This document shows, piece after piece, positions 48,753-59,036 of a stretch of DNA of 64,000 nucleotides; positions within the stretch are counted from its first letter, which is position 1; each line of letters begins with the position of its first letter. The translations under genes were made by a program, and so were the position numbers. The stretch covers positions 256,001-320,000 of the forward strand of contig JAHQWK010000001.1 of assembly GCA_029856145.1 (NCBI GenBank). Direction: 5' to 3'. The notes beneath the pieces were generated by a model. The model ran no database searches. It had not been told where the DNA came from and saw only the letters and a program-made list of their open reading frames with translations. This DNA is from Promethearchaeia archaeon (GTDB lineage: Archaea > Asgardarchaeota > Lokiarchaeia > Sigyniarchaeales > SOKP01).

Positions 48753-49520
48753 TTGGTTTTTGGTGGATACATAATCACTTTATTTATAATTAATCTTGAT
48801 AGAATTCTTGTAATTTACTTAACTCAAGGAATATTGGTAATCTTTTTTTCATTGCTAGCGTATCGAATATTAAAAAGAAAAAGACAACGATTAAACCTAA
48901 TTTTCAGTCTATTCTTTATATGTACAATTATCGGCACTATTTTTAATATGATTTATGCTCCTTTAGATCCAATACAACATGAACCAATTATCAAAATTCT
49001 TAATTTTTTCGCTAATTTCTTTGTTTTTTTTGCTCCAATCTTTATGGTCATTGTTAATTTTATTATATTAGAATCAACTCTAATATTCTCGGTAAAAAGG
49101 CAAAACAGGTATATTTTCTTTTATGGATTTTTAATTTTCTCCGGAATGTTAATATTAATCTTAATACCAGATCCACTAAACATTTTAGGAGTTGCAATTA
49201 CAGATGAGGGAAGACCAGAATGGGGTATAGTTTTTTTCATTTACATGGTTTCAATGCTTACGGGTTTTACATTCATCCCTATCTTTCGCACATCTTTAAA
49301 GATATACAATAGTTTAGAAACAAAAGAATTAAAGAAGAAATGGGTATACTATTTTATTGGTACTTTAGGAGTATTTAGTTGGGGTTATTTTATTTTTATA
49401 ACGAATTACTTTGGACATTATTTCGCCATCTTAAGGTCAATTTCATCAATATATGGAATTTCAATTATTATCTGGGTCTGTTTGATGTATTATGGAATTG
49501 GGTTTAAGTTAAAAAATTAA
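48753..49520 (+). CDS. Stand-alone 7TM receptor-like membrane protein, copy 1
   Basis: Seven hydrophobic segments by eye; paralogue of 50963-51724 (KRKRQRLN, ILESTLI.SVKRQNRY, MYYGIG). Confidence 0.75.
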   Translation: MVFGGYIITLFIINLDRILVIYLTQGILVIFFSLLAYRILKRKRQRLNLIFSLFFICTIIGTIFNMIYAPLDPIQHEPIIKILNFFANFFVFFAPIFMVIVNFIILESTLIFSVKRQNRYIFFYGFLIFSGMLILILIPDPLNILGVAITDEGRPEWGIVFFIYMVSMLTGFTFIPIFRTSLKIYNSLETKELKKKWVYYFIGTLGVFSWGYFIFITNYFGHYFAILRSISSIYGISIIIWVCLMYYGIGFKLKN

Positions 49521-49612
49521 TCGGATTCTATACAAGCTTGTCTTTTTGATATCAATAGTTTGCTTTTTAAATTCAGTTATTCTGAATATAAAATTTACTG
49601 ATAAGATTTCTA

Positions 49613-49630
49613 TTTTTTCACGGGACAAAT
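49613..49630 (+). promoter_or_regulatory. Degenerate palindrome TTTTTTCACGGGACAAAT upstream of GNAT copy 1
   Basis: Same position relative to TAGAAAA and a TATA-like box as the perfect copy at 51800. Confidence 0.5.
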
Positions 49631-49695
49631 TAGAAAAATATTAAATATGAAAAGAATTAAACAATAAATGAAAAACTGCTAACAATAGGGAAATT

Positions 49696-50799
49696 ATGCA
49701 AACAACTAGTGAAAATTATTTATTAGACCAAGAAAAACATACTTATTTTCATAGATTTATTGCAAAAAATGGAGAAGAATTTGGATTAAGATTTGGAACT
49801 CCTCGTGATGCAAAAGCTCTTTCTATGATTTTTAAAGAGGTATATGGCTATAAATATGCGTATCCTATCGTTTATGATATAAATCATCTAAAAAGGGAAC
49901 TATCAAACAAAAATAAATTTTGGATTGTAGGTGAATTAACAAATAATCATGAAATTGCTGGTTTTGGATTAATAGAAAAAAAAAGATATATTGCTCATGC
50001 TAGCCAAGCTGTTGCAAAGAAAAAATTTCATGGTTTAGGAATTTTAGCAAAACTTGGTGCGGCCGGTGTGATATATGTTATAAAGATGCCTCAATTCAAA
50101 GATGTGCTAAGACTTGATGGAGAAACTCGAGGATTGAAAATTGGCGCACAAAATCTTATTCGAAATGCAGGGGCGTTTCCTTATGGGTTAATTCCTGCAT
50201 ACATTAATTATGGAGACAAGAGGAAATTTAAAATTGATGAAACGACACCAGTCCCACCACTAAAAGAAGAAGCTGCGTTTCTTTATTCAATTATATTTAA
50301 TAAATTATGGCGTAAAAGAGATAAAAACGTCTATTTATTAAATAATGGGGATTTCATCTTTTTTTATAATTACGTTAAAAAAATGTCTAATAAAATGAAA
50401 AAAGACCGTCTGAATTTAGAAAGGGGTAAGAAAGATAAAGGGTATGAACTTTATGGGTTTTCCAAGGATCTCTATGAAGGGAGAGTGAGTTTGTATGGAT
50501 ATATTAAAGAAAAATCATTGAATAATTTGCTTAAAACTTATCACAATTGGAGAATTTTAGTATGGAGAATCCCTACCACTCAAAATGGGATACATTCAAT
50601 GTCCCTTGCTCTTGAAAAAGGATTTAATATAGTTGGATATGATATAGGTTTTAATAATATAAATTGGACTTTATTTGATTCAGTTATACTCGCATACTAT
50701 CCCAACGGGGGCTCTCACGTTTTAAAAGTAAAATGTATGGATGAGAATAGACCTCTTCTTAATAAGATTAGAGAAATATTTTTTTCTCGTGTCAATTGA
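49696..50799 (+). CDS. GNAT-fold acyltransferase-like protein, copy 1
   Basis: GLRFGTPRDAKALSMIFKEVYGYKY, motif A KKFHGLGILAKL; paralogue of 51885-52982. Confidence 0.7.
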   Translation: MQTTSENYLLDQEKHTYFHRFIAKNGEEFGLRFGTPRDAKALSMIFKEVYGYKYAYPIVYDINHLKRELSNKNKFWIVGELTNNHEIAGFGLIEKKRYIAHASQAVAKKKFHGLGILAKLGAAGVIYVIKMPQFKDVLRLDGETRGLKIGAQNLIRNAGAFPYGLIPAYINYGDKRKFKIDETTPVPPLKEEAAFLYSIIFNKLWRKRDKNVYLLNNGDFIFFYNYVKKMSNKMKKDRLNLERGKKDKGYELYGFSKDLYEGRVSLYGYIKEKSLNNLLKTYHNWRILVWRIPTTQNGIHSMSLALEKGFNIVGYDIGFNNINWTLFDSVILAYYPNGGSHVLKVKCMDENRPLLNKIREIFFSRVN

Positions 50800-50962
50800 T
50801 TACGCCTTTAATTTACTTAATCATTAAAATTTCTGTTATATATAATTATAGCGATTTTTTGAATTAAAATTTGGTTAAATATTTGTTATTAAAGCGATTA
50901 GAATATAGTTATATATTTATGAGCAAATATTATACTACCTATAAAAATTAATAATAATCTTA

Positions 50963-51724
50963 TTGGTGGAAAAAACGTCATATCAAGCTGAAATACCGAG
51001 AATTATAATGGTTTATGTGTTTTTGGGAATTTTAGTACTCTATTTTTCAATAATTACTTATAAAGTTTTAAAGAGAAAAAGGCAACGTTTAAATTTTGTT
51101 ATTAGTGGTTTTTTTGTCAGTATATCCATTGGGTTTATTTTAAATATGGCATATGCAGCCATGACTGATAGAATAACTATTCTAATTCTTAATTTCTTAA
51201 CTAATTACTTCATATTTTTTGGACCAGTCTTTCTACTTATTGTAAATATGATAATATTAGAATCAACTCTTATTTATTCTGTAAAAAGACAAAATAGGTA
51301 TATATTATTTTATGGAATCTTGCTCTTCGCAGGGATGTTAATATTAGTCTTATTAGGAGAAATATTTGATACTCCTAATGTACCATTTTTAGGAGTCCAA
51401 ATAATTAATAACGCACCAAAATGGGGGCCTTTATTTTTTGCCTATGTAGTTTCAATTATGTCTATTTTTACACTTATTCCAATAAATTATACAAATTTTA
51501 AAATCTACTTCCAGTTTGAAACAAAGGCATTGAAAAGAAAGTGGTTTTTCTATTTATTTGGCTTTTTAGGATTAACAGTGATTTTATATTTTAGTATTAT
51601 ATTTAATCTTTTGGATGCTATTATTTATGCTGATGTTAGATTAATAATAACTCTATCAATAAGTAGTGTAATAATCTGGGGTTATATGATGTATTATGGG
51701 ATTGGAATTGAATTAAAGAAGTAA
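50963..51724 (+). CDS. Stand-alone 7TM receptor-like membrane protein, copy 2
   Basis: Seven hydrophobic segments; paralogue of 48753-49520. Confidence 0.75.
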   Translation: MVEKTSYQAEIPRIIMVYVFLGILVLYFSIITYKVLKRKRQRLNFVISGFFVSISIGFILNMAYAAMTDRITILILNFLTNYFIFFGPVFLLIVNMIILESTLIYSVKRQNRYILFYGILLFAGMLILVLLGEIFDTPNVPFLGVQIINNAPKWGPLFFAYVVSIMSIFTLIPINYTNFKIYFQFETKALKRKWFFYLFGFLGLTVILYFSIIFNLLDAIIYADVRLIITLSISSVIIWGYMMYYGIGIELKK

Positions 51725-51799
51725 TGCCTTAACCTTTTTTCTTGAATTTAATAATTCGCGTTATTTTTCAGAATCTTTATTCTGTAACTTATTTTTAAT

Positions 51800-51817
51800 T
51801 TTTTTCACGTGAAAAAA
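51800..51817. promoter_or_regulatory. Perfect 18-bp palindrome TTTTTTCACGTGAAAAAA upstream of GNAT copy 2
   Basis: Read directly; just upstream of the TATA-like TTTTATAT. Confidence 0.6.
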
Positions 51818-51884
51818 TAGAAAATTTTATATTATGCTCCGAGAAGAATTAATTAACTAGTTAAAAATAGATCGGGATATTAGG

Positions 51885-52982
51885 ATGGCAACCATCATTA
51901 AAAAAGGATTAGATCTTCAAGAAGAGGATGCTTATTTTCAAAAATCTAAATTTAAAAATGGACAGGAATATGGATTAAGGTTTGCTATTCCAAAAGATGC
52001 TACAATTATCTCATCTCTGTTCAAAGAAAGCTATAATTATGAATATCCTTATCCTTATGTTTACGATATCGAACTTTTAAAAAAGGACATTTCAAAACCT
52101 AATAAATTTTGGGTCCTAAGCGATTTATTAGAAAATAAAGTGACTGTTGGCTGTGCCTTAGTCGATAAAGAAAGATACATCGCCCATGCTGGGTGTTTAA
52201 TTGTGAAGAAAGATTTTCGGAGGCAAGGAATTACAAAAAATTTGGCAGCAGCAGGGCTTTTAACAGTTACAAAAATGCCTCAATTTAAAGATGTTTTAAG
52301 ACTTAATGTTGAAGTTCGTGCTCCATTAACTCAAGTTCAAACTTCTGCTCAAAATGCGGGGGCAATACCTTATGGTATAATACCTAGTCACATTAAATTA
52401 ACAGATAACAGATATTTTGATATTAATGATAATAAGCCATGTTCCCCCCAAAATGAAGAATTCAGTACAGTACTTTATTCAATGATTTTTAGAAACCTAT
52501 GGAAGAAAAGAGACAAAAATGTGTTTCTATTAGATAATGAAGATTTAATCTTCTTATATGAATATATTAGAAGTCAAGCTAAAAAAATGAAAGACGATAC
52601 ATTAATCCTTAAAAACAAGAAAAGGAGTAAAGGATATGAACTTTATGGTGTTTCTAAAGATTATTATTTGGCACATGTGAAATTATTTGGCTATATTAAA
52701 GAAAAATCTCTTAATCATTTATTAAATACTTATAGGAATTGGCGAATGATCCTATGGAAAGTTCCGACTACTGAAAATGGAATATCTTCGATGTCTATAG
52801 CCTTAAAAAAAGGATTTAAAGTGGTGGGTTATGATATTGGGTTTAATAACATAAATTGGACCTTATTTGATTCAATTATACTAGCATACTATCCTAATGG
52901 AAATTACGTGTTGTCAGATATAAATTGTTCAGATACAATAAAACCTCTTTTTAACAGGATAAAGAAACAATTTAAGACTTAG
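51885..52982 (+). CDS. GNAT-fold acyltransferase-like protein, copy 2
   Basis: Motif A VKKDFRRQGITKNL; shares VGYDIGFNNINWTLFDS.ILAYYPNG with copy 1. Confidence 0.72.
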   Translation: MATIIKKGLDLQEEDAYFQKSKFKNGQEYGLRFAIPKDATIISSLFKESYNYEYPYPYVYDIELLKKDISKPNKFWVLSDLLENKVTVGCALVDKERYIAHAGCLIVKKDFRRQGITKNLAAAGLLTVTKMPQFKDVLRLNVEVRAPLTQVQTSAQNAGAIPYGIIPSHIKLTDNRYFDINDNKPCSPQNEEFSTVLYSMIFRNLWKKRDKNVFLLDNEDLIFLYEYIRSQAKKMKDDTLILKNKKRSKGYELYGVSKDYYLAHVKLFGYIKEKSLNHLLNTYRNWRMILWKVPTTENGISSMSIALKKGFKVVGYDIGFNNINWTLFDSIILAYYPNGNYVLSDINCSDTIKPLFNRIKKQFKT

Positions 52983-53087: not shown

Positions 53088-53543
53088 TCATGATAATAGC
53101 GAAATCACTTTTTCTTCAAAAGTTTGAGTACCTGTTCCAAAAATTTTAGTGAGGGATTGTTTAAAAGGTTCAAATTGGCCAACTTTCGTAAGATTAGAGC
53201 CATCAAAATGAGAAATAAATCTTTTTAAAAACTTTTCCAATAAGGGTAAAATTGATTTTTTTAAATACTTCTCAAGTCTATAATCTTTATCCAAAACTAT
53301 GAAAGCAACAATTTCCTGAACATCTCTAAATAAATCTTTTATTGTACCTTTCTTAAAAATTATTGAATATTTATCACTTTCAAAATATTCTACTGGTTCC
53401 ATCAAACATTCGGCAAAACTCAAGAGCCCACTCATTAATCCACTTGAACAAACTAAATTAGTTTGACTTTTACTAGCTCTATGATAGCTGATGAATATAA
53501 TGGGAATTCCATGGAAGATTATACCGGCTTCTCGAATCAACAT
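53088..53543 (-). CDS. Stand-alone longin-like domain protein
   Basis: Pattern consistent with beta-beta-alpha-beta-beta-beta-alpha-alpha: IREAGIIFHGIPII, SGLMSGLLSFA, VEYFE..SIIF..AFIVLD, LLEKFLKRF, QFEPFKQSLTKIF. Confidence 0.7.
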   Translation of the reverse strand: MLIREAGIIFHGIPIIFISYHRASKSQTNLVCSSGLMSGLLSFAECLMEPVEYFESDKYSIIFKKGTIKDLFRDVQEIVAFIVLDKDYRLEKYLKKSILPLLEKFLKRFISHFDGSNLTKVGQFEPFKQSLTKIFGTGTQTFEEKVISLLS

Positions 53544-53584
53544 AATGAATTCTGAAGTAAATTAAACCAAATCGCTGTTACGGA

Positions 53585-53600
53585 TATTCTTATAAGAATA
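53585..53600. promoter_or_regulatory. Perfect 16-bp palindrome TATTCTTATAAGAATA over a TATA-like box upstream of the longin gene
   Basis: Read directly; ~40 nt upstream of ATG at 53543. Confidence 0.4.
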
Positions 53601-53811
53601 CTCCTAATATTCGACAAAATTCTCATATATAAATATAAGTCTTTTCGAACATATTTCGTCGCGATAGTACAATATTAATGCTAAACAGAAAATACGTCGA
53701 ATAAAAAAATTCTCTCAATAAAATATCTCTGAAAAGAATTTTATAGGATTTTAAAAAAAATTTTGTTTCAAATTATACTAAAATAGGGTTTTATTGCAAC
53801 TAATAGCACAT

Positions 53812-54942
53812 TTATGTTGAAAAAATCTCATCAATGATATTTTTAACTGGGTAAAATACAGTTAAATCTCCATTCCAATTAATCAAAATGTTATTATATA
53901 TTTCTTCAACCTTCAGAACTAATCTTTTTAGATTATATGTAAAATATTTCAATTCCTCTTTACTAATTAAAATTCCTGTAATATAATTGGCAGAAAAAAC
54001 ATTTACTATTTTTCTTTTTTTCTTTATAACAGAAATTTCATTAGGTTTGCCATGAATCAATTCATTAAGCATGATATTCATAGAAGCTAAAGCTCCAGAT
54101 ATAAATTGCTTTTCTAAAATTTCAGTATTCTCCATAAAGGAATAATTATATAAACAAATTCCATTTTTATTCAAGATATATATACTTTCAATTTTATCTT
54201 GCCAGTCATATTCAAAGAATGAAGGAATTTTTCTAAAAAAAATGAAGATAAAGCCAATAGCTATTAGTTGGAGGAGGATTCCTATAAATCGAACTAAAAG
54301 GTTTAAATTTTCAAGAAGTAGATCCATCGAAAGAATATATCCCACTAATATAAGTAGGATTGTAAGTGTCATTTTTAGGGCTCCCTTAGGGAGTATATTT
54401 TGTTTTTTCGATTTTTTACCAAAATCTATAACATAAATTATAAAAAACAAAATAAATAAAGGAAAAGACAGAAATGAAAGCACATTAATGATTTCTAAAT
54501 TAATGAAGAATATGACTATAAAAATTAATAATTGAATTAAAAAACAAGTGGTAAAAAAAAATCTTTTGAATAAGAATTTTTTATATTTTTCCATGAATAA
54601 CGTAAAAAATAAGGTACTTAACATTATTGATAGAAATCCAAAATTTAATAAAAGACTTCTAAAACTCCCAATGGTCCATAGAAAAAAAGGAGAAATGATA
54701 AGATCACTAGAGTAGTAGTCACCTAATAAAAAGAAGAACCTCATTAATGAAAATCCGCTAAATAATGCGAAAAATCCTAAATCTTGAGAATTTTTAAGTG
54801 GCTTTGGCTGTTTTTTATATTTGATTAAAAATAGTAGACCTAATTCAAAAGATAAGAATATGAAAATCCAATCCATTACTAAGGATAAAAATCTATGTGG
54901 ACCAATAATAGGAAATTCTGTAAATAAAATATTAATCATCAT
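53812..54942 (-). CDS. 7TM + C-terminal longin fusion protein B
   Basis: Seven TM, linker PSFFEYDW, then IESIYILNKNGICLYNYSF..FISGAL..WNGDLTVFYPVKNIIDEIF. Confidence 0.78.
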   Translation of the reverse strand: MMINILFTEFPIIGPHRFLSLVMDWIFIFLSFELGLLFLIKYKKQPKPLKNSQDLGFFALFSGFSLMRFFFLLGDYYSSDLIISPFFLWTIGSFRSLLLNFGFLSIMLSTLFFTLFMEKYKKFLFKRFFFTTCFLIQLLIFIVIFFINLEIINVLSFLSFPLFILFFIIYVIDFGKKSKKQNILPKGALKMTLTILLILVGYILSMDLLLENLNLLVRFIGILLQLIAIGFIFIFFRKIPSFFEYDWQDKIESIYILNKNGICLYNYSFMENTEILEKQFISGALASMNIMLNELIHGKPNEISVIKKKRKIVNVFSANYITGILISKEELKYFTYNLKRLVLKVEEIYNNILINWNGDLTVFYPVKNIIDEIFST

Positions 54943-54945
54943 CCA

Positions 54946-56091
54946 TTATTGTAAAATTCTATTAATAATAACTTCAAAACTCGAAAATAATTTTCCTTGA
55001 TCGCCCTTTAAATCCTCCAAATCTAATAAAATCTCTTTAAAAAAAGACTCAAATTTAATTCTTATAGATTTTAGAAGATGATGAGTACTACTTAAATCCC
55101 TTTTTACAACTAAAATATATGTTATATGAGAAGGATTCAATCCATATTCTAAGAACATATGAAAATCTCCTTTCTTTATTTTATTTATTTTTTCTTTTAT
55201 GGTACCTGTGATAATTGTAATAATACTTTCGATTCCCATTATTCCTTTAGAAAACAGTATCTCATTATTATATAAATGATTTTGACTTATTTTACTATTA
55301 TTTTCAAGTTTTTCAATAAAATTATAACTATAAATGCAACTTTTGTTGTGTTGATTAATTATAAATAATTTTAAGAGGTTGTTTCTCCATTCAAATTCAT
55401 AAAATGGAGGAAAGTCATAAACAGAAAAGAAGATAATAATGAAACCCGTCAATAATTCACCTACTCCTGTGAAATATATTATTTCATTAATAACTGGAGG
55501 TAAAACACCCAAACCAACCAATGAAGCAAAAACTAATGCAAATAAACTTACAATTGCTCCAATGAGAAATAATTTAAACTTTTTCCTGATACTACCTATT
55601 GATTTTTTAATCAAAATTAATTGAAATCTGATTATATATAATCCATTTAAAACAACAAATAAGATGCTTAAAATAAAAATTGGTGAACCTAGGTAAGGTA
55701 CTAATAAAATCATAACAATAGGTATGATATTAAAGATCATCAAGATTTTAGCAATATTTAGATTTATTATAATTGAAAAATCCTTTCTAATTATGAAAAT
55801 GGAGACGCTAAAAGTAGAAAAAAAAGCAAAAAACCAACCCATTCTTGAAAAGAGTTCATATAAAATTCTATCTTCAATGAAATTCCTTGATATTTGTATT
55901 AGTAATGGACCTAAAATTATGAACAAAACAAATGACCCAAATGCTAGTAATACTCTATTTAAGGGAAGAGTTATATCTTGAATTTTGCGATATTGGAAAA
56001 AAAAGTATAAGGCTAATTGAATACCTATAATTACCGGTACCAGATAAGCCAGAAATTGCAGTTCTTTACTAATTTCAATTTGAGAAAGCAT
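54946..56091 (-). CDS. 7TM + C-terminal longin fusion protein A
   Basis: Seven TM, linker PPFYEFEW, then LLKLFIINQHNKSCIYSYNF..LFSKGIMGIESII..KFESFF..LFSSFEVIINRIL; stop is 3 nt from the ATG of B. Confidence 0.78.
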   Translation of the reverse strand: MLSQIEISKELQFLAYLVPVIIGIQLALYFFFQYRKIQDITLPLNRVLLAFGSFVLFIILGPLLIQISRNFIEDRILYELFSRMGWFFAFFSTFSVSIFIIRKDFSIIINLNIAKILMIFNIIPIVMILLVPYLGSPIFILSILFVVLNGLYIIRFQLILIKKSIGSIRKKFKLFLIGAIVSLFALVFASLVGLGVLPPVINEIIYFTGVGELLTGFIIIFFSVYDFPPFYEFEWRNNLLKLFIINQHNKSCIYSYNFIEKLENNSKISQNHLYNNEILFSKGIMGIESIITIITGTIKEKINKIKKGDFHMFLEYGLNPSHITYILVVKRDLSSTHHLLKSIRIKFESFFKEILLDLEDLKGDQGKLFSSFEVIINRILQ

Positions 56092-56220
56092 TTTTTATAT
56101 TTACGTAAAAAAATTAAACTGAATTTGAATTTTTTAATATTATTTTCCTGAAAGCACTATAAATATTATTCTCTTTTTCTTAAATTCAATAATTAATATT
56201 TAAACAGAGTATTTAACCAT

Positions 56221-56754
56221 TTATATTAATTGAAAATCTTTTAAAATTCTTTTCAATAAAGATTCGAATATATCTTCCACGTTTTCCCCTGTTTTGGATG
56301 AACATTCTATATAATCAAAGAAATTATATTGATGTCTTATTTTTTCTGCTTCCTTCTTTGAAACTGCTATTTGATCCTTAAGATCTAACTTACCTCCAAC
56401 CAGTATGATTGGAGGATTTTGTTTTCCAGGAGATAAACCCTTTTTAAAAGTATCCAACCATTCTTTAACTCTAATTAATGTTCCATATCTAGTAAGATCA
56501 AACATAAAGATGCCACCAGAAGATCCCCTTGAGTATAATGGTAGTAAAAAATGAAACTCTTTTTCACCACCAAAATCCCACACTTGCAATACTATTCTTT
56601 TATCTTCAATTTTTAGAAATTTTATAAAAATTTCTGCTCCCATTGTAAGCTTAATGTCTTCATCAAAATACCCTTTAAGAAATCGCTGAGCTAATGTAGT
56701 TTTTCCTACACCACTTTCTCCAAAAATGCAAATTTTGTAAGCTAATTCTCCAAT
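56221..56754 (-). CDS. Rab-like small GTPase (extended to probable ATT start)
   Basis: In-frame upstream extension gives YKICIFGESGVGKTT (G1) and KLTMG (G2); WDFGGE (G3), GGKLD (G4), CSSK (G5); no ATG/GTG/TTG before G1; no C-terminal Cys. Confidence 0.9.
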   Translation of the reverse strand: MGELAYKICIFGESGVGKTTLAQRFLKGYFDEDIKLTMGAEIFIKFLKIEDKRIVLQVWDFGGEKEFHFLLPLYSRGSSGGIFMFDLTRYGTLIRVKEWLDTFKKGLSPGKQNPPIILVGGKLDLKDQIAVSKKEAEKIRHQYNFFDYIECSSKTGENVEDIFESLLKRILKDFQLI

Positions 56755-57021
56755 AATAGGCTCCCTCTTTTCTACATTTTATGATTAATAACTATCTGAA
56801 TTCGATTCTTTTAGAAATCGAAAACCTCAACCGAATTTATATTATTAAAGAGAAAAATGCTTGTTCTATTTGAAAACTCGAAAATAAAGCTAAGGCGAAT
56901 TTTCTTTTCTCTATTGTATTAAATAAAATCTTAAATATTTAAATCTATTTTAAAACCTTCTGATAAATCGAGAATTAGTTTTCCAAAATTGTTAAAATTA
57001 AAAAAAATTTTAAAAAAAAAT

Positions 57022-58458
57022 TTACTTCCTCTTTCGCTTAGGTTCAATTTTTTTAATAATTATTGATTCTGCATGGACTTTGCAATTCTTCAAAATTATT
57101 TTGAAGCCACCCGCTCCACCAACACCAGGGATAGTCATTCCTACAGTTCCCATTGGAACCATCGCACCTTCTTCTTCCCATTCCTCTTCCTCTTCTACGC
57201 CACCAGCAGCAGCTTTATATTCTTCAGTTTCTATAATTGGGTGGCCAACTTTTTCTAACCATGCCGGTAATTCACTTAGATCTGAAACCTCATCTTCAGT
57301 TGCAATTTTATCTCTTAGATCTTCTGGAAGGAATTCATAAACTCTATCTTTAACGGTTTTACCCATCCATACGATAGTGTAAATCCCTGCCTCCAATCCT
57401 GATTTTATACCATCATATTTTTGGTATTTAGGTGATATAATATATTGTATGCTTATGCCATTAAATCCTGGCATTTGTTTACCTCCACCCGTCTGATTTG
57501 CCATCGCACTAAAAGGTAGCCCATTGATAGCAACTCCATCGTGATTTCGATCGATTATTCCATGACCTGCTCCTGTCTCAGGAATAAAGAAATCTATTGC
57601 TTCAAAGCAGCCGCAACTAGTATGAGGGAACACCATTCCGCTGTAGAGATAAATTCTATCTATGTCTCCAAGTGAACGCTTTTTTATCATTTCATTAACT
57701 CCTTGGAACTCACCTGCTAATTCGTTTAAACACTCACCCATAGGTACCTCGAACAATGGCCCTTTCGGATCAACACGCGCAGCAGCTCTTGCATCAAACC
57801 ATGAGATAGAACCGCATAAACTCATTCGATTTGGTGTTATACAACATGCATGAGTAGGAGCAAAACTCTGGCATAAAACACAGCCATAAAACATATCTAC
57901 ATCTTCATCGTTTATACTACGAGCTCTTTCGTCTCGTTTATTGTATATTTCTAAGGCAAAATCATAGGTCTCTTTAATTTTATTTGGATCTGTATAGAAT
58001 GTAACTTGGGCTTTTTTAATGATTGGAAGTTCAGCTTTATACAGTCTAATTAAAATAGTTCCAAGCATCTGAAAATTATCAAATCCTTTTTCTACAGCAG
58101 CTTTAGAAATTCGCATCCAATTAGTATATCTTTGGTTCAAATGCATTATTCCATTTACAAAATTGCAAAATTCATGAACTCTACGTTCGAACACGGCCTC
58201 GAGGTCTTCTTCAAGCTCAGGGCCAGCTACTTCTACTAAAATTCCTATAGGGTGTCTTGATCCTACTTCCATGTCTTTTATATCGGGACCGATAAGAGTT
58301 ACTTTTCCATCTTCAATTTCCTTATCTTTTTTAACCCTCACGAGTTCATAATGTTTCTCAACTTTTGGACCACCAAGCTCTACATACATTTGGTTTCCTC
58401 GAATTCTTTCACCTTCATATACTGGTCCAACATCTACAGGCATATCTGCAAAACTCAT
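57022..58458 (-). CDS. cdhC: Acetyl-CoA decarbonylase/synthase beta subunit
   Basis: PVDVGPVYEGERIR, CVLCQSFAPTHAC..LCG, A-cluster PHTSCGCFE. Confidence 0.96.
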   Translation of the reverse strand: MSFADMPVDVGPVYEGERIRGNQMYVELGGPKVEKHYELVRVKKDKEIEDGKVTLIGPDIKDMEVGSRHPIGILVEVAGPELEEDLEAVFERRVHEFCNFVNGIMHLNQRYTNWMRISKAAVEKGFDNFQMLGTILIRLYKAELPIIKKAQVTFYTDPNKIKETYDFALEIYNKRDERARSINDEDVDMFYGCVLCQSFAPTHACCITPNRMSLCGSISWFDARAAARVDPKGPLFEVPMGECLNELAGEFQGVNEMIKKRSLGDIDRIYLYSGMVFPHTSCGCFEAIDFFIPETGAGHGIIDRNHDGVAINGLPFSAMANQTGGGKQMPGFNGISIQYIISPKYQKYDGIKSGLEAGIYTIVWMGKTVKDRVYEFLPEDLRDKIATEDEVSDLSELPAWLEKVGHPIIETEEYKAAAGGVEEEEEWEEEGAMVPMGTVGMTIPGVGGAGGFKIILKNCKVHAESIIIKKIEPKRKRK

Positions 58459-58496
58459 ATTTAATTTCTCCTCTTATTTTTTTTTTCAATAATATT

Positions 58497-59036
58497 TTAT
58501 AATTTTTCAATCAAATTTTCTAAAAATGTTTTCCATTCTTCCTCGTTTAGATTTGGTAAACTAAATCTAGCATTTGGATGAGAATATTTATCTAGATCAA
58601 TTGTTCTTAACCAGTTTGTAAAGTTTTTGAGCCGTGATAATGCTTGAGAAACATAGAAAACTATGTGTCCTCCAAATATAGCCATTGAATATTGTCCTTC
58701 TCCATCTAAACCTGCCCAATCTTTATCAGATAAACGGTTTGTAATATTTATCAAAGACATATCATATAATTTATGATCTGCTATCTTATCTTTTAAATAA
58801 CTGTATGCGTGTCCTGTAGAAACTACATGACAATCAAATTTATTTGCTATTTCTATGAAGTAGTCCGCAACTTTTTTACCATCAAGCTCCCAATTTAAAG
58901 ATTCAGCACCAATAACGAAAACACTCTTCTTAGGAGTTTTAAGTAAATTCACCATCACCATTGGATCTGAAACAGAAGTACCCATCTCAGGGCCTGGGAT
59001 ATTAGCTTTTTGATATGGACGTGCCATTTCACTCAA
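58497..59036 (-). CDS. cdhB: ACDS/CODH epsilon subunit
   Basis: PYQKANIPGP, WAGLDGEGQY, YSHPNARFSLPNL; upstream of cdhC. Confidence 0.9.
   Translation of the reverse strand: MSEMARPYQKANIPGPEMGTSVSDPMVMVNLLKTPKKSVFVIGAESLNWELDGKKVADYFIEIANKFDCHVVSTGHAYSYLKDKIADHKLYDMSLINITNRLSDKDWAGLDGEGQYSMAIFGGHIVFYVSQALSRLKNFTNWLRTIDLDKYSHPNARFSLPNLNEEEWKTFLENLIEKL

Follow-up and report, generated by a model that had tools for sequence, protein, structure and literature searches.

A candidate membrane-held longin platform for a Rab-like GTPase in a Lokiarchaeial genome

Small GTPases are encoded by the dozen in Asgard archaea, and so are longin and Roadblock proteins. To our knowledge, it is not known which regulator serves which Asgard GTPase, nor how GTPases without an anchor reach the membrane. 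Genome layout generally gives no clue to the matching of GTPases and regulators (Tran et al., PMC10933270). The question raised here is whether one Lokiarchaeial locus does give such a clue. It lies in a stretch of 64,000 nucleotides from a Promethearchaeia archaeon (assembly GCA_029856145.1, contig JAHQWK010000001.1, positions 256,001 to 320,000), called the window below, to whose full length all coordinates refer. Between 53088 and 56754, its minus strand carries the genes for a Rab-like GTPase, for two seven-transmembrane-helix (7TM) proteins that end in a longin domain, A and B, and for a protein of 151 amino acids (aa) that is a longin by itself. All four open reading frames lie where the original prediction, made from the DNA letters alone, had put them, and are co-oriented as it had said. 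Near-identical DNA is present in marine-sediment and subsurface metagenomes from three studies, and among the public runs no RNA run was listed as containing it. The answer favoured here, largely on the basis of structural models, is that A and B form a heteromeric, membrane-held longin platform that binds and anchors the adjoining GTPase and controls its nucleotide state; we give this reading a probability of roughly 0.55.

A and B are separated by 3 nucleotides (nt) and share one build. The AlphaFold2 model of A (predicted local distance difference test, pLDDT, 79.6; predicted template modelling score, pTM, 0.66) has seven long helices (residues 7-224), followed by a beta-beta-alpha-beta-beta-beta-alpha-alpha domain; an extracellular domain is absent from it. 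By BLASTP, A and B are alike in the C-terminal 130 residues alone (26%, E 2e-9). Profiles built from 50 A and 32 B sequences, however, align across 352 columns (hhalign 99.8%, E 4.8e-28), which makes the two old paralogues over their full length. Counted over the alignments, lysine plus arginine residues number 12.3 in the cytoplasmic against 3.6 in the outer loops of A, and 15.1 against 2.9 in those of B. These counts favour an N-out/C-in topology for both proteins, with the longin domains in the cytoplasm, so that the seven-helix fold with a cytoplasmic C-terminus that had been proposed holds as a prediction, from the modelled helices of A and the charge counts of both proteins.

The most conserved stretch of the family is the linker between helix 7 and the longin domain, FPPFYEFEW in A and PSFFEYDW in B. 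Among the 50 A sequences F227, P228 and E232 are invariant, and P229, F230, Y231, F233 and W235 are conserved in at least 90%; the shared P-x-F-x-E-x-x-W linker of the original prediction is recovered in these columns and in the B sequence. Polar residues are conserved inside the helices as well (E10, Q12, Q25, N45 and R69 in A; E24, E33, R95 and E118 in B), which suggests a site for a small ligand or ion. No family was found for A, B or the 151-aa protein in a Pfam/NCBIfam scan at E up to 1, and neither A nor B matched a Pfam 7tm family or PF16927 (HisKA_7TM).

The nature of the C-terminal domain is best judged from structure. In the model of A, DSSP assigns strands at 239-246, 252-257, 304-307, 310-316 and 323-329 and helices at 270-295 and 334-350, followed by C-terminal helices. 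The models of A and of the 151-aa protein both have the longin topology, beta1-beta2-alpha1-beta3-beta4-beta5-alpha2-alpha3 without the N-terminal helix of Roadblock proteins. Foldseek E-values for the whole of A are marginal (4e-3), and a domain-level VIA alignment was used for the longin matches; Z-score differences below 1 count as ties here, and a fold alone proves no activity. The top match of A 238-381 is TRAPPC4 (Z 13.7, root-mean-square deviation (rmsd) 2.7 Å over 125 residues), followed by Bet5 (Z 13.0), Fuzzy (13.0), Ccz1/Mon1 (about 12) and BLOC-3 (11.9). Lower matches are SNARE longins, adaptor sigma and zeta subunits and SR-alpha. MglB and Ragulator/GATOR-type chains also occur among the matches, MglB far below the longins. 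These comparisons support a longin fold for the modelled C-terminal domain of A, with the Rab-contacting longin subunits of eukaryotic exchange factors as its best matches. The longin-like C-terminal domains that had been proposed are thus confirmed, by structure for A and by alignment to the A domain for B.

For the membrane part, structural likeness is less telling. The bundle of A matches adhesion and class C G protein-coupled receptors (GPCRs) at Z of about 12 and rmsd 4-5 Å (best ADGRL3, Z 12.4, 4.0 Å), but values under about 13 are common for unrelated helical bundles, so that this match is not above chance. The ESM Atlas places it nearest to stand-alone Asgard 7TM proteins, which form a large cluster (template modelling score 0.74), and to N-terminal 7TM domains of bacterial histidine kinases (0.66-0.69 by query). 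A feature search gave a cosine of 0.82, under the lead level of that tool. The likeness of the modelled bundle to histidine-kinase input domains is a lead towards a sensor role, no more.

The two genes travel together. About 100 A-type relatives of near length (35-73% identity) were found, all unnamed proteins of Asgard metagenome-assembled genomes, and the family comprises 531 clusters at 50% identity (E ≤ 1e-3) among 1.84 billion representatives, with full-length members of 360-390 aa. A match to A at E ≤ 1e-10 occurs in 134 of 400 genomes of the phylum; strong matches concentrate in the class of the window, and two other families have weaker, B-like single proteins. The neighbourhoods of 40 loci and four assembly loci were scanned in six frames with profiles of the transmembrane part, the longin part, the free longin, B and the GTPase. 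At 31 distinct Lokiarchaeial loci, each of the 33 A genes is followed immediately by B on the same strand, usually with a few nt between them or an overlap, which supports A-B as an obligate adjacent pair of paralogues.

A Ras-family GTPase directly adjoins the A-B pair in 16 of the 31 loci, with a gap of up to about 210 nt. Ras matches number 81 in the 3.55-Mb genome of the window and make up about 2% of its genes, from which one or two loci with an adjoining GTPase would be expected by chance over two flanks; genes farther out in the same loci have a GTPase content at background. Linkage is therefore far above background, with the proviso that related loci are not independent. Four arrangements occur, with the GTPase upstream and co-oriented (as in the window), downstream and co-oriented, divergent or convergent, so that adjacency has been kept or rebuilt through rearrangements. 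The synteny across Lokiarchaeia that had been put forward as a check is accordingly found for the trio of GTPase, A and B.

The third member of the trio deserved its original name of a Rab-like GTPase: it matches Pfam Ras at E 2.6e-39 and Arf at just 1.5e-8, its orthologues carry the NCBI name 'Rab family GTPase', and it has the motifs G1 (GESGVGKT), the switch I Thr, G3 (WDFGGE), G4 (GGKLD) and G5 (SSK). Two motifs deviate, as Glu replaces the catalytic Gln (Gln61→Glu) and GKLD replaces NKxD, with Gly for Asn. The protein ends in ...KDFQLI, and its tail is free of Cys, as had been noted, and thus of the strict prenylation motif of eukaryotic Rabs. A long N-terminal helix is absent too. With neither feature, the GTPase would need a protein anchor to act at the membrane.

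In a tree of 53 GTPases from the genome of the window and those from the fetched loci, ten distinct linked GTPases group with that of the window in one clade (SH-aLRT support 96), which includes just one other of the 53. A second clade of four holds linked members only, and four linked GTPases are placed outside both. Clustering of the linked label was matched in 0 of 500 shuffles, a count to be read in the light of kin sharing labels. The members of the first clade have WDFGGE (Glu at the position of Gln61) and VGGKxD (Gly for the Asn of NKxD) in common, as do their nearest paralogues. Both deep branches of the A tree have linked GTPases of this clade, so that the partnership between the 7TM-longin pair and its GTPase is old; it is also often broken.

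How the partners might fit was addressed with a three-chain model of A 226-381, B 238-376 and the GTPase, in which every chain had an alignment of its own and the GTPase was the scored partner. The interaction score from predicted aligned errors (ipSAE) is 0.82, against 0.48 for the best of three controls. The mark set for this score is reached by 58 of 80 solved complexes and by 2 of 110 mismatched pairs, a calibration that is rough for a three-chain model based on alignments of its own. Between the three runs at least 98% of contacts are shared, and the partner has a pLDDT of 85 or more. The GTPase contributes switch I (residues 27-44), the interswitch (55-59), switch II (66-79) and its two termini. 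On the A longin, contacts fall on residue 250 and the alpha1 helix (278-293); on the B longin, those of lowest error fall on the alpha1 helix (276-294) and on the strand edges 259-263 and 357-361, which include the invariant G261 and the near-invariant G358. In the model, then, the switch regions of the GTPase dock on the alpha1 helices of both longins, which lends support to binding, though what the model shows is likeness to solved complexes. The modelled docking corresponds to the canonical way in which Roadblock and longin dimers hold a GTPase. A confident interface with the switch regions, which the original prediction had asked for, was hence obtained in silico. Given that A and B are invariably adjacent and that the alpha1 helix of each touches the GTPase in the three-chain model, we infer that the two heterodimerise.

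Taken as a working mechanism, A and B would act as a heteromer of two paralogous seven-helix membrane proteins, whose cytoplasmic longins would pair through alpha1 to give a flat platform of the kind known from TRAPP Bet5-Trs23 or Mon1-Ccz1, and this would be held at the membrane by fourteen helices. This platform would bind the switch regions of the soluble GTPase, which has no lipid anchor, keep it at the membrane and set its nucleotide state. Conformational changes of the 7TM bundles might be passed on to the platform by the rigid, invariant FPPFYEFEW that follows helix 7.

The most likely activity of the platform would be that of a guanine nucleotide exchange factor (GEF). Ras Q61E hydrolyses GTP faster than the wild type, and changes of Asn116 loosen nucleotide binding. 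A GEF is favoured because the closest folds are GEF subunits, because an arginine finger is not conserved and because of this behaviour of Ras; with Glu61 speeding intrinsic hydrolysis and the changed Asn116 position loosening binding, exchange rather than hydrolysis would be the controlled step. A bolder version, in which A and B are a true receptor, is more tentative and on present evidence rather doubtful: the 7TM bundles would sense a ligand, a lipid or the state of the membrane, the linker would relay the signal and the longin pair would be the GEF of a fast-cycling GTPase. The analogy with GPCRs is one of topology alone.

Several observations weigh against the platform. Solved longin-GTPase complexes exist, and the success of the model may reflect memory of them. 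With A swapped for an unrelated protein, the GTPase still reaches 0.48 on B alone, so that most of the modelled interface is due to B. Neither an Arg nor another catalytic residue was seen to be conserved in the longin domains of A (50 sequences) or B (32), by which neither GEF nor GTPase-activating protein (GAP) chemistry is indicated. An adjoining GTPase is absent for 15 of the 31 pairs, and sister pairs differ in their GTPase neighbour (L040 versus L041, L044 versus L045). Three genomes with unlinked pairs (G224, G271 and G161) gave no orthologue of the window GTPase above 49% identity (best 44-49%), and in a fourth genome whose A-B pair has no GTPase neighbour (G123) the same query found no match at E ≤ 1e-45. 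Single 7TM-longins of another Asgard family (f31) lie by DUF362 and DinB genes, with no GTPase nearby. The window GTPase, finally, appears to rely on an ATT start, and if this codon is not used its product would have no P-loop. The genomic points among these suit the idea that adjacency to a GTPase is incidental in the GTPase-crowded Lokiarchaeial genomes and that the pair acts on something else: about half of the pairs, as well as more distant family members, have no adjoining GTPase, and in strain MK-D1 operons generally do not join small GTPase genes to longin or roadblock genes (Tran et al., PMC10933270). Sixteen linked loci against the one or two expected, with non-adjacent flanks at background, make this idea quite improbable, however, and so do the gathering of linked GTPases in two clades, unmatched in the label shuffles (even though kin share labels), and a complex model that passes its controls.

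If the pair does bind the GTPase, it could still do so as an off-switch. A GAP at the membrane sites of A and B would confine the GTP-bound GTPase to places away from them, as MglB does to MglA and as FLCN-FNIP, Nprl2-Nprl3 and C9orf72-SMCR8 would suggest. The linked GTPases indeed have no catalytic Gln (WDFGGE), a feature tied to GAP dependence in other families, Roadblock and longin dimers bind GTPases in one geometry whether they serve as GEF or GAP (PMC10933270), and MglB and Ragulator-type chains are found among the structural matches. The A longin, on the other hand, has no invariant Arg or Lys, and that of B a single near-invariant Lys, K308. Known longin GAPs (FLCN, Nprl2, SMCR8) work by an arginine finger. 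Moreover, the top structural matches are GEF subunits, although fold rank does not decide activity, and the speed of Ras Q61E means that a Glu at this position need not call for a GAP; such an off-switch is judged unlikely. Much the same low likelihood is given to A and B as a passive anchor, scaffold or effector, with the 7TM part being the thing controlled, such as a transporter or channel, instead of a sensor. The polar residues inside the helices fit a transport or binding path as well as they fit a sensor, there is no extracellular domain, and eukaryotic longins also include non-catalytic adaptors, with SNARE longins and AP sigma being the best matches of the free longin. Against such a passive role, the modelled contacts span both switches and the interswitch, which is the mode of regulators, and the nearest structural relatives of the 7TM part include histidine-kinase input domains.

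The regulatory platform can be placed among known systems. The eukaryotic Rab GEFs built on longin heterodimers are the TRAPP core (Bet5/TRAPPC1-Trs23/TRAPPC4), Mon1-Ccz1, BLOC-3 (Hps1-Hps4) and CPLANE (Fuzzy-Inturned). A and B resemble them in joining two different, here paralogous, longins with structural matches at Z 11.9-13.7, in the modelled docking of the switches on paired alpha1 helices and in having a Rab-like partner. They differ from them in showing neither detectable sequence similarity nor a Pfam match, and in that each longin is fused to a 7TM domain; the complexes of eukaryotes are peripheral, and lipids or other proteins recruit them. A partner of the TRAPPC3/Bet3 type, as found in TRAPP, is not present in the locus, and GEF activity of A and B is putative. 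MglA-MglB and the archaeal Roadblock-GTPase pairs likewise combine a small Ras-like GTPase with a dimeric Roadblock/longin platform encoded nearby, but MglB is a soluble Roadblock homodimer with an N-terminal helix, while A and B have longin topology with two C-terminal helices and are predicted to be heteromeric and membrane-embedded.

Among membrane receptors, GPCRs with heterotrimeric G proteins share the seven helices, the predicted N-out/C-in orientation and the proposed action on the nucleotide state of a cytoplasmic GTPase, and some GPCR classes are obligate heterodimers, GABA-B being among the structural matches of A. There is no relation to them in sequence or Pfam family, the partner is of Ras/Rab type and not a G-alpha, and coupling would run via a fused longin instead of the cytoplasmic cavity of the bundle. 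In mTORC1 signalling, SLC38A9-Ragulator-Rag and GPR155/LYCHOS-GATOR1 similarly couple a polytopic membrane protein to a Roadblock/longin platform, and the platform determines which state a small GTPase is in. In those lysosomal transceptors, these are separate polypeptides acting on Rag heterodimers, whereas here sensor and platform would be one chain serving a single Rab-like GTPase. The likeness to these systems and to GPCR signalling is one of logic only. HisKA_7TM histidine kinases and 7TMR-DISM receptors have a 7TM input and a cytoplasmic output as well; A and B differ in their longin output, in place of a kinase, cyclase or phosphatase, and in always occurring as heteropairs. In architecture, prokaryotic 7TM receptors whose output is a kinase or cyclase come nearest to them, and the longin output is new. 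Within Asgard archaea, coupling of GTPases to regulators is known from longin- and Roadblock-GTPase fusions such as LokiRagM and from the operon of a LAMTOR1-like protein, a Rab-like GTPase and a DENN protein described by Liu et al.; like the trio, these are Asgard-specific, but they are soluble. No description of a transmembrane or 7TM longin in Asgard archaea was found in the literature, a listing in the asCOG tables of Liu et al. still being possible.

The trio stands out clearly against the general silence of genome layout, as it combines a defined GTPase clade and a defined regulator pair with a membrane anchor that is built in and an interface modelled with confidence. For Asgard archaea it gives the first concrete match of a GTPase with a regulator that is easy to test; its soluble domains of about 140-180 residues should be readily expressed, and it offers a candidate for the way in which Lokiarchaeial archaea bring a small GTPase to the membrane and switch it. 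Should the pair prove to be a GEF, this group would have its first matched system of GTPase and regulator, with a receptor-like input into a small GTPase in a prokaryote, and the pair would be a plausible ancestor-like form of the Rab-activating longin platforms of eukaryotes. If it is also a receptor, it would be a prokaryotic, independently built counterpart of signalling from GPCR to G protein, and a membrane-integral stage in the history of the longin GEFs of organelle identity (TRAPP, Mon1-Ccz1). The features of the locus are collected in Table 1.

Table 1. Features of the locus, in window coordinates, with the evidence for each
Feature	Coordinates	Strand	Evidence
Shine-Dalgarno-like GAGGGAG (56767-56761) and ATT start of the GTPase gene (56754-56752)	56752..56767	-	no ATG/GTG/TTG before the P-loop
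Ras-superfamily (Rab-like) small GTPase, 177 aa	56221..56754	-	Pfam Ras E 2.6e-39; motif alignment; clade tree
7TM-longin protein A, 381 aa	54946..56091	-	open reading frame; AlphaFold2 pLDDT 79.6; about 100 homologues
Seven-helix transmembrane domain of A, residues 7-224	55420..56073	-	DSSP helices; positive-inside count, N-out/C-in predicted
Juxtamembrane linker FPPFYEFEW of A, residues 227-235, from helix 7 to longin strand 1	55387..55413	-	column conservation in 50 sequences
Longin domain of A, residues 236-381	54949..55386	-	structural matches Z 13.7/13.0; complex-model contacts
7TM-longin protein B, 376 aa, full-length paralogue of A	53812..54942	-	hhalign; follows A in 33/33
Linker PSFFEYDW of B, residues 240-247	54202..54225	-	BLASTP alignment; consensus PxFSExDW in 32 B sequences
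Longin domain of B, residues 248-376	53815..54201	-	aligned to longin domain of A; complex-model contacts
Stand-alone longin protein, 151 aa, syntenic backbone	53088..53543	-	model pLDDT 74.7; Z 13.2 to Sec22b

The start of the GTPase gene is unusual. Between the upstream stop codon and the P-loop, no ATG, GTG or TTG is present, and the frame opens at the ATT, which sits 6 nt downstream of GAGGGAG. The same codon is ATG in the orthologues of two other loci (L003 and L040). Contigs from the three metagenome studies cover it with no difference from the window listed at this codon, so that the ATT is not an assembly error. Similar starts recur: in 5 of 12 GTPases of the linked clade, from different genomes (window 56752-56767, L044:3102-3689, L054:7344-7910, L060:6320-6904 and L062:6245-6853), ATT or ATA takes the place of ATG/GTG/TTG before the P-loop, 6-8 codons upstream of it and preceded by an AGG/GGAG motif. 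A non-canonical start occurs in just 2 of 55 Ras-type GTPases of the genome of the window. Gene callers shorten GTPases with such starts to 140 aa (P0228, P0280). Their recurrence in the clade suggests a deliberately weak initiation that might keep the dosage of the GTPase low via translation. A promoter and terminator scan yielded no more sites than shuffled sequence, its consensus being bacterial and uninformative for an archaeon.

The stand-alone longin, which the original prediction had counted as a fourth component, is sound in fold and fails as a part of the module. Its model (pLDDT 74.7) has strands at 3-10 and 13-19, a helix at 35-44, three further strands and helices at 90-113 and 121-135. 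The best match is Sec22b (Z 13.2, rmsd 2.3 Å, 119 residues), then VAMP7, Ykt6 and AP sigma, and all of the top 50 structural rows are longin-type; a profile search of the PDB gave as its best match just an Asgard longin, 8yqg, at E 0.26. To the longin of B it is weakly similar (hhalign 47%, E 2e-4). Its orthologues (68-91% identity) are almost confined to the genus (41 of 53 genomes), many of them in genomes with no A-type match. In six congeners (L077-L082) the free longin is kept at the same site, between a cassette of 7TM and 367-aa proteins and cdhC, which it adjoins directly or at a distance of up to about 2 kb, and the trio is absent. Among 11 genomes with both, it adjoins the A-B pair on the same contig in just five. 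With its site kept in six congeners that have no trio and its near restriction to the genus, it was rejected as a fourth component; the trio (window 53544-57021) is polymorphic for presence and absence within the genus, and the free longin belongs to the backbone. Around the trio, a search for signs of a mobile cassette gave AT-rich chance repeats only and no flanking duplication. One genome with no trio at this site (G224) has an A-B pair elsewhere, with no GTPase. A more distant paralogue of the free longin follows one paralogous A-B pair (L064), and a looser functional tie of free longins to A-B pairs is possible from this gene order.

On the far side of the trio follow cdhC, for the beta subunit of acetyl-CoA synthase (478 aa), and a CO dehydrogenase subunit gene (window 57022-59036), an ordinary Wood-Ljungdahl context that is kept in congeners. 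Next to the free longin, window 48753-52982 holds a tandem-duplicated cassette of a 255-aa seven-helix protein and a 367-aa protein, which is single-copy in congeners, where it adjoins the free longin. The notion of the whole 8-kb block as one 'signalling island' was dropped, since the 7TM proteins at 48753 and 50963 have no profile similarity to the transmembrane domains of A and B (hhalign about 1%).

Several further arrangements of these families were observed. Tandems of the form A-B-A'-B' occur in two genomes (L047, G163:C50; L049, G274:C26), and at another locus (L042, G128:C11) two modules stand head to head, each with its own GTPase. At the f31 loci (L065, L066, L073 and L074), B-like 7TM-longin genes stand singly or in pairs, and GTPase genes are absent from the 5 kb around them; their neighbours encode a DUF362/4Fe-4S protein of about 400 aa and a protein of the DinB family of about 180 aa. 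The trio of G268 is flanked on both sides by proteins of about 530 aa with a central Ras-type GTPase domain (L040:2581-4170 and L040:7429-9006), paralogues of which lie in tandem in the genome of the window (contig C1, 30720-34077). Contig C4 of the same genome carries two paralogues of the free longin (C4:22177-22644 and C4:2014-2475), the latter divergent from a 745-aa open reading frame (C4:2510-4744) whose C-terminus resembles the longin domain of A. With seven Ras-type GTPase genes at 15-39 kb on this contig, its region of about 2-39 kb may be a second neighbourhood of GTPases and longins.

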